Program-made: the position numbers and the translations under genes
Source: Escherichia coli
Lineage (GTDB): Bacteria; Pseudomonadota; Gammaproteobacteria; Enterobacterales; Enterobacteriaceae
Length of the DNA: 64,000 nt
Strand: one strand, 5' to 3'
NCBI RefSeq assembly: GCF_048403405.1
Contig: NZ_CP183129.1
Notes under the pieces: model-generated
Told to the model about the DNA's origin: nothing
Database searches by the model: none
The model's input: the letters and a program-made list of their open reading frames with translations, nothing else
Shown here: one piece after another, positions 4,926 to 5,108 of the stretch
How the letters are laid out: each line of letters begins with the position of its first letter
Position numbering within the stretch: the first letter of the stretch is position 1

Positions 4926-5108
4926 TCATGGCAGATGTTTATTCCCATCTAAAATGGCATCAACGGGAAAGTAAGTAATGTGTTTATTGTTATTCTTCTC
5001 ATTTATTTTATCGCCATGGTTATTTTTTAAATCAACCGGGGCTTCCTCATGATATTTCCTGATTAACTCTTCAGGCGTAAAAGAAGAGTTTTTTCCGTTT
5101 ATGTTCAT
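4926..5108 (-). CDS. Small Lys/Asn-rich hypothetical protein (60 aa) between chaperone and translocator genes
   Basis: ORF starts 9 nt after the eicA stop on the same strand; no equivalent gene that I recall in SPI-1 or Shigella ipa operons; AT-rich, weak RBS. Confidence 0.3.
   Translation of the reverse strand: MNINGKNSSFTPEELIRKYHEEAPVDLKNNHGDKINEKNNNKHITYFPVDAILDGNKHLP

Follow-up and report, generated by a model that had tools for sequence, protein, structure and literature searches.

The eip locus and the interval between eicA and eipB

The DNA analysed here, a stretch of 64,000 nucleotides (the 64-kb window), is Escherichia coli chromosome and contains the eip (selC-B) locus, which is associated with the ETT2 type III secretion system (T3SS) (PMC7058095; PMC11068852). 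Every eip gene is on the minus strand of the window. The annotated order is yicL - nlpA - yicS - chaperone - small ORF - translocator - second translocator - tip protein - eilA - iatC, and tRNA-Sec lies past yicL and setC in the annotated neighbourhood. A 601-nt query centred on the small ORF had matches of 90-100% identity in 733 of 5,426 complete E. coli genomes. The features used below, in the order in which the minus strand is read, are:

5118-5615, minus strand: eicA, a 165-aa class II (SicA/IpgC/LcrH-type) TPR chaperone (Pfam TPR_3, E=2.4e-17)
5109-5117, minus strand: gap of 9 nt from the eicA stop codon (TGA) to the ORF start codon, read from the sequence
4926-5108, minus strand: the small ORF, 60 codons with an ATG start (RefSeq WP_001024524.1, hypothetical protein)
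4989-5108, minus strand: hypervariable part of the ORF, codons 1-40, delimited by mutation density
5023-5028, minus strand: A6 homopolymer in codons 27-29, where both common frameshift alleles arise
4871-4988, minus strand: conserved block (codons 41-60, the stop codon and a 55-nt leader), delimited by mutation density
4877-4882, minus strand: Shine-Dalgarno sequence of eipB, AGGAGG (anti-SD duplex energy -15.9 kcal/mol)
3089-4870, minus strand: eipB, the 593-aa major translocator (SipB/IpaB/YopB family; Pfam T3SSipB and SseC)
1946-3076, minus strand: eipC, the second translocator, 376 aa, matching IpaC/SipC in position
553-1902, minus strand: eipD (Pfam T3SS_TC)

The Pfam assignments identify an operon in which a class II TPR chaperone is followed by a SipB/IpaB-family translocator, and the annotated names agree: PGAP calls the eicA product a 'SycD/LcrH family type III secretion system chaperone' and RefSeq calls that of eipB a YopB/SseC translocon subunit. 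EipC matched no Pfam or NCBIfam family and is labelled 'hypothetical protein' by PGAP. It is only 27-30% identical to its counterparts in Escherichia albertii and in a third eip-like locus of E. coli (L011, below).

An earlier reading of the sequence, made without database searches, had pointed to a Lys/Asn-rich ORF of 60 codons between the chaperone and translocator genes. This ORF is in the ORF listing (4926..5108, minus strand, ATG start), and its translation, MNINGKNSSFTPEELIRKYHEEAPVDLKNNHGDKINEKNNNKHITYFPVDAILDGNKHLP, contains 10 Asn and 7 Lys residues (28%). The distance of 9 nt that had been given from the chaperone stop to the ORF start was confirmed by locating the TGA and the ATG in the sequence. 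The 55 nt that had been placed between the end of the ORF and the ribosome binding site of the translocator gene are right in length (4871-4925) but end at the eipB ATG; the AGGAGG of eipB begins 43 nt past the ORF stop.

We found that the ORF, as a sequence object, is longer than expected by chance (P~0.01). The eicA-eipB spacer is A-rich and is 247 nt long in the window. A sense-strand ORF of at least 60 codons occurred in just 0.6-1.2% of shuffled 247-nt spacers (P=0.006-0.012), a value of limited weight for E. coli because the ORF had been chosen after the sequence was seen. The Shine-Dalgarno-like match of the ORF is weak (-4.8 kcal/mol, equalled by 20% of random 22-mers), and re-initiation after termination of eicA translation would be the likely route if the ORF is translated. 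The N-terminus is rich in Asn and Ser and has no acidic residue among its first 12, which is compatible with a T3SS substrate and not diagnostic of one. PxLxxP is the chaperone-binding pattern of class II chaperones, familiar from work on IpaB and IpgC. The motif is found near residue 60 of all three EipB homologues (PMLAPP at residue 62 in the window), is absent from the E. coli ORF of the window, and was not seen by eye in any of 24 in-frame variants.

The ORF is already catalogued in RefSeq/PGAP as an unnamed prediction. In published descriptions the eip locus comprises six genes, and the ORF is not one of them (PMC11068852; PMC7058095). The descriptions that we consulted do not mention it, and we found no function or expression data for it.

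We compared the distance between the chaperone and translocator genes in related loci, gathered by exact-protein look-ups, tblastn against plasmids and a degenerate-DNA scan of metagenomes. The sequence-only reading had stated that the translocator gene elsewhere follows the chaperone gene directly. This is so for Shigella ipgC-ipaB (gap of 5 nt), for sicA-sctE on a Providencia plasmid (2 nt) and for a T3SS on an E. coli plasmid (8-nt overlap), whose genes abut, in contrast to the 247 nt of the eip locus. The distance between sicA and sipB in Salmonella is likewise short. In two further relatives the genes are separated by 34 and 46 nt. However, the long gap is not peculiar to the window. The spacer is 263 nt in the eip locus of E. 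albertii (chaperone 72% identical), 255 nt in L011, a third eip-like locus present in some E. coli (chaperone 55% identical), 282 nt in the related locus L029 and about 150 nt in L028. Long spacers, of 150-282 nt, are thus normal in the eip-like branch and in some of its relatives. No long ORF was found in the spacers of L011 and L029.

A few E. coli, represented by L011 and L012 (E. coli GCA_009799345.1 and GCA_910664965.1), carry an eip-like module of this third and highly divergent type. The chaperone is 55% and EipB 28% identical to those of the window. The module adjoins an invasin/intimin-type adhesin and a HilA-like regulator, and its 255-nt spacer has a GC content of 25%.

Reading frame and substitution pattern of the ORF in E. 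coli

We found that the ORF is an orphan. An exhaustive HMMER profile search of 1.84 billion representative sequences gave no homologue outside E. coli; a few matches made up of several stretches in much longer proteins were taken as low-complexity hits. A word-indexed search of 5.8 billion proteins returned nine sequences, all of them copies or fragments of the ORF itself (71-96% identical), and the source names on three of the nine matches were all E. coli. The ORF has no Pfam or NCBIfam family. The AlphaFold2 model, obtained from a shallow alignment of 10 near-identical sequences, was poor (pLDDT 54.5, pTM 0.19) and contained a single short helix. An origin by duplication was considered and rejected: the ORF has no significant similarity to EicA, EipB, EipC or EipD, and the spacer DNA is not repeated elsewhere in the window.

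We found that the reading frame is frequently lost among E. coli carriers. Lack of conservation of the frame among related eip loci had been named beforehand as the result that would refute a coding role for the ORF. The frame is broken in 31% of complete carrier genomes and in 39% of metagenomic loci that are otherwise intact. The eip loci were taken from complete genomes across the identity range, from contigs encoding variant proteins, and from 52 metagenomic contigs; the metagenomic contigs were identified by matching a degenerate pattern within the chaperone gene, a choice independent of the spacer.

Both common frameshift alleles arise in the A6 tract. The A5 allele (a -1 slip) encodes a 34-aa product and was detected by an exact 41-nt match in 146 genomes, including enteroaggregative E. 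coli (EAEC) 042. The A7 allele (a +1 slip) encodes a 29-aa product and was detected in 82 genomes by a search in blastn mode. Together the two account for 228 of the 733 complete carrier genomes (31%). PGAP flags copies with A5 or A7 as 'frameshifted', and RefSeq WP_001024524.1 and such pseudogene copies (for example EC042_RS31660 in EAEC 042) are the same ORF at the same position. Both eicA and eipB were intact in those frameshift genomes in which we checked the neighbours of the broken ORF, and in EAEC 042 eicA, eipB, eipC, eipD and eilA are all intact. EAEC 042 is the eip reference strain, in which the locus was defined, and is also the strain in which EilA-dependent expression of eip genes has been reported (PMC11068852; PMC4210603).

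Similar proportions of broken frames were found in the metagenomes. Thirty-six loci had full-length eicA (165 aa) and eipB (593 aa). The ORF encoded 60 aa in 22 of them, 34 aa in 11 and 29 aa in 3, so that it was truncated in 14 of 36 (39%). In one metagenomic contig the A5 allele was accompanied by a 5-nt deletion, which brings the ORF back into frame (58 aa). Among in-frame copies in E. coli we counted 24 distinct 60-aa variants, in all of which the last 14-15 residues are nearly invariant. Among the sequenced loci each tract length is found on its own spacer haplotype, which suggests that A5 and A7 are inherited variation and not sequencing noise or rapid phase switching. Phase variation at the tract was rejected on the same ground. 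A tract of six bases is also short for a contingency locus.

Disruptions of the neighbouring genes were also seen in a minority of loci. eicA itself is annotated as 'frameshifted' in E. coli strain EC1 (NZ_CP058574.1; our locus L017), and a premature stop in eicA or eipB was present in 8 of 48 metagenomic loci, some of which may be assembly errors. These disruptions fit the mutational attrition reported for ETT2/eip. Separately, a metagenome-assembled genome labelled 'Collinsella sp.' (L013, JAIJJM010000039.1) contains an E. coli eip chaperone-ORF-translocator region (~98% identical, A5 allele), and this contig is most likely a binning contaminant.

We found that mutations within the ORF are distributed as if placed at random, in contrast to those in the flanking genes. 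Each segregating mutation was classified relative to the consensus, and the counts were compared with those from 3,000-20,000 permutations in which mutations were moved to random sites holding the same base. For the 21 loci analysed, 14 synonymous, 36 nonsynonymous and 0 stop mutations were observed in the ORF, with 13.2, 35.1 and 1.7 expected (P=0.45). For 34 haplotypes, including the metagenomic loci, the counts were 11, 31 and 0, with 11.9, 29.1 and 1.0 expected (P=0.70), and the mutations fell 15:15:12 over the three codon positions, with no bias to the third. The same test was strongly positive for eicA (31-34 synonymous mutations, 12-14 expected), for the N-terminal half of eipB (80, 34 expected) and even for its hypervariable C-terminal half (121, 70 expected), with P<0.0004 and a clear third-position excess in each case. 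No stop-creating change was found among the ~50 substitutions in the ORF, a deficit that is not significant (P=0.16-0.35).

Ratios of nucleotide diversity gave a similar picture. πN/πS for the ORF was 0.49 in the annotated frame, no different from the 0.55 of one wrong frame; the remaining frame gave 1.58. It was 0.07 for eicA, which is under strong purifying selection, and 0.12 for codons 1-300 of eipB. The complete-genome loci had been picked by divergence of the spacer, which inflates diversity and leaves the ratio of synonymous to nonsynonymous changes unaffected. By a rough binomial estimate of power at ~50 mutations, ω of ~0.5 would be rejected only at about P=0.02, and ω of at least 0.7 is indistinguishable from 1.

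The divergence of eipB was noted in the course of this comparison. E. coli eipB has deeply divergent allele classes in its C-terminal half (window 3089-4000, codons ~300-593, compared with loci L001 and L015-L026). Nucleotide diversity is 0.14-0.24 in this half and ~0.03 in the N-terminal half, and πN/πS of the C-terminal half is 0.45. Over the 601 nt that cover the spacer and the adjoining gene ends, strain WP4-S18-ESBL-07 (L001) and the window are 100% identical, and from eicA to the start of eipB (1 kb) they are 99.9% identical; identity across the 2.7-kb eicA-eipB segment is only ~90%. The locus is mosaic, and this pattern suggests recombination and possibly diversifying selection on the translocator.

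The sequence-only reading had offered two views of the ORF, as a small peptide that is secreted or regulatory and as mere non-coding spacer, and had proposed dN/dS across eip-carrying genomes as a check. That check revealed no coding constraint. With the frame lost in many carriers as well, the peptide view is unsupported in E. coli. Non-coding spacer is the better of the two descriptions, the frame being broken in 31-39% of copies and the pattern of substitution unconstrained.

The conserved block next to eipB

We found that conservation within the spacer is concentrated at the eipB end. In the 34 haplotypes, mutations in codons 1-40 of the ORF numbered 0.31 per site and fell evenly on all three codon positions, and nucleotide diversity peaks locally here; the flanking genes had 0.18-0.19 mutations per third-position site. 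The mutations in codons 1-40 comprised 9 synonymous and 28 nonsynonymous changes, compared with 10.4 and 25.6 under the null. Codons 41-60 had 0.083 mutations per site and the 55-nt leader had 0.036. There were no mutations at all in 4858-4897, which spans the Shine-Dalgarno sequence and start codon of eipB. The anti-SD duplex of eipB is the strongest in the locus.

We infer that this block of ~118 nt probably acts in cis on eipB. Conservation of the C-terminal codons need not be at the level of protein, since it runs straight into the conserved non-coding leader. In addition, the block is downstream, in the frame of the ORF, of the premature stop in the frameshift alleles, which makes a role in cis for eipB the likelier reason for its conservation. 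The simplest reading of the block would be constraint at the nucleotide level on a cis-acting eipB leader.

A conserved block of ~100 nt upstream of eipB might also be expected if the spacer encoded a structured regulatory RNA or an antisense transcript, with the ORF incidental. We searched for signs of both. A sigma-70-like site (ATGGCA-16-TAAAAT) is present at 4928-4955 on the plus strand, inside the conserved block and antisense to the conserved 3' end of the ORF; transcription from it would run back into the ORF and eicA. However, the match scores no higher than the minimum, and shuffled sequence yields such matches at least as often, so it may be due to chance. A scan for sigma-70 promoters and terminators found no sense-strand promoter in the spacer. 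An Rfam scan of 4500-6500 gave no match at E<=1, the predicted fold of the spacer RNA was no better than that of shuffled sequences (z=-1.32), and the conserved block is too invariant for a covariation test. We consider an RNA or antisense function very improbable.

An ORF at the same position in E. albertii and interpretation of the spacer

We found an ORF in the corresponding interval of E. albertii. The locus (L008; GCA_027566955.1, contig JAQALS010000009.1) contains an unannotated 70-codon ORF at 6519-6731, between the eip chaperone and translocator genes. Its GTG start overlaps the chaperone TGA as GTGA, its Shine-Dalgarno match is good (-8.8 kcal/mol), and it ends 54 nt before the translocator ATG. 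An ORF of this length is improbable by chance (P=0.006, spacer shuffles). The ORF is open in five alleles, which differ by 2 synonymous and 4 nonsynonymous changes. Its sequence PELIKP fits the PxLxxP pattern (chance P=0.03). It was an orphan in protein searches, and its predicted structure is of low confidence.

The two ORFs are thus alike in position, in extent, in being longer than expected by chance and in being orphans. They are unlike in that the E. albertii ORF has a GTG start, a good Shine-Dalgarno match and the PxLxxP motif, and there is no detectable similarity between their sequences. Homology between them was examined by BLASTP, by local alignment and by alignment of the DNA segments, all of which were non-significant, and the two eip spacers have no significant DNA similarity. 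The N-termini resemble each other (MNINGK and MNSINK; 6/25 ungapped identities, P=0.026). Because EipB itself is only 28% identical between the two species (EipC, 27%), the missing similarity of the ORFs neither proves nor disproves common descent.

The E. albertii ORF raises the possibility that the E. coli ORF is a genuine, very fast-evolving small accessory protein, either a chaperone-bound substrate or a regulator, that was ancestral to both species and is decaying in part of E. coli. Sense-strand ORFs of more than chance length fill the same interval in two lineages whose neutral sites are saturated, and with translocators so divergent an undetectable orthologue is plausible. The Shine-Dalgarno match, GTGA overlap and PELIKP motif of the E. 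albertii copy fit such a protein, as do the similar N-termini and the nearly invariant last 14-15 residues of the 24 in-frame E. coli alleles. However, those conserved codons continue into the non-coding leader, PxLxxP is missing from the E. coli ORF, BLASTP and local alignment detected no similarity between the E. coli and E. albertii ORFs, and confidence in the structure is low for both. There is no synonymous excess in E. coli, and none is visible among the six changes in E. albertii. Finally, 31-39% of E. coli copies, including that of EAEC 042, are truncated beside intact neighbours. We regard an accessory protein as possible but rather unlikely.

An open frame in two lineages without constraint on amino acids would also be explained if the act of translating the spacer matters and the peptide does not. 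Ribosomes coupled from eicA might cover the A/U-rich RNA between the genes and so shield the eicA-eipBCD transcript from RNase E cleavage or premature termination, or might set the output of eipB. In both species the ORF starts at or just after the chaperone stop (the GTGA overlap in E. albertii, 9 nt in E. coli) and ends 54-55 nt from the translocator start, as would suit this idea. Against it, the common A5 and A7 alleles halt translation 78-93 nt early, the spacers of L011 and L029 are equally long and have no such ORF, and other SPI-1-type operons have no spacer. C-poor RNA is a poor substrate for Rho, and the spacer is C-poor (15% C). eipB also has its own very strong Shine-Dalgarno sequence. 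A function for translation as such seems improbable to us.

The two preceding possibilities can be combined in a broader statement: that the eip-type loci of E. coli and E. albertii have a position-conserved small gene, whether a fast-evolving chaperone-bound substrate or regulator or a stretch whose translation tunes translocator output, that about a third of E. coli lineages, 042 among them, have lost. We consider this statement doubtful. If true, it would add a lineage-restricted component to a poorly understood secretion system, which would be of moderate interest and to T3SS specialists only.

Our results are, we think, best explained by a dispensable, drifting spacer ORF that is not kept for its protein, with the functional part of the spacer being the block next to eipB; we hold this with modest confidence. 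The ORF would be housed in an A-rich intercistronic spacer of ~250 nt that is typical of eip-type loci. Its first ~120 nt appear to drift at about the neutral rate, and the eip module would not need it. Because the ATG is 9 nt past the eicA stop, ribosomes finishing eicA probably read the ORF incidentally. The eipB-proximal ~118 nt would act in cis as a 5' leader or translation-initiation region, or possibly as an internal promoter or operator. The direct basis for this interpretation is the orphan status of the ORF, its neutral substitutions, the frequent frameshifts beside intact neighbours and the gradient of conservation. We reach it because, in E. coli, the ORF fails every direct test for a selected protein, and a third of carriers keep the module intact while lacking the full ORF.

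Some of our observations count against a drifting spacer. An ORF of at least 60 codons occurs in only ~1% of shuffled spacers, and E. albertii has its 70-codon ORF in the matching place. Survival of a neutral ORF in both species would not be expected, given that EipB is 28% identical and the spacers have no significant DNA similarity. The lack of stop mutations among ~50 substitutions (not significant) and the one frame-restoring metagenomic allele point in the same direction. What is hard to reconcile is the presence, in two lineages whose divergence is saturated, of improbably long ORFs spanning the same interval; an accessory protein or selection for translation would account for it.

These findings bear on annotation of the locus. 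RefSeq lists a 'hypothetical protein' within a virulence-associated T3SS module, and its product has no sign of selection. EAEC 042, from which the locus was defined, itself carries a broken copy. Unless experiments support a function, the ORF should be neither added to the eip genes as a seventh member nor listed among candidate effectors. The constraint in the ~118 nt beside eipB should be useful to work on ETT2/eip expression, and the natural A5, A6 and A7 alleles could be used as near-isogenic controls.

Translationally coupled intercistronic and leader ORFs are a general class with which the E. coli ORF can be compared. It is like them in starting near the upstream stop, in having an unconstrained sequence and in preceding a gene with its own ribosome binding site. 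It differs in that truncations are common and no stalling motif or alternative RNA structures were identifiable in it. The module around it has the gene order of Salmonella sicA-sipBCD and Shigella ipgC-ipaBCD: a chaperone, a SipB/IpaB-type translocator, a second translocator, an IpaD/SipD-type tip protein and a HilA-like regulator. Within that familiar arrangement the ORF is unexceptional, being a small orphan ORF of an AT-rich island acquired by horizontal transfer.
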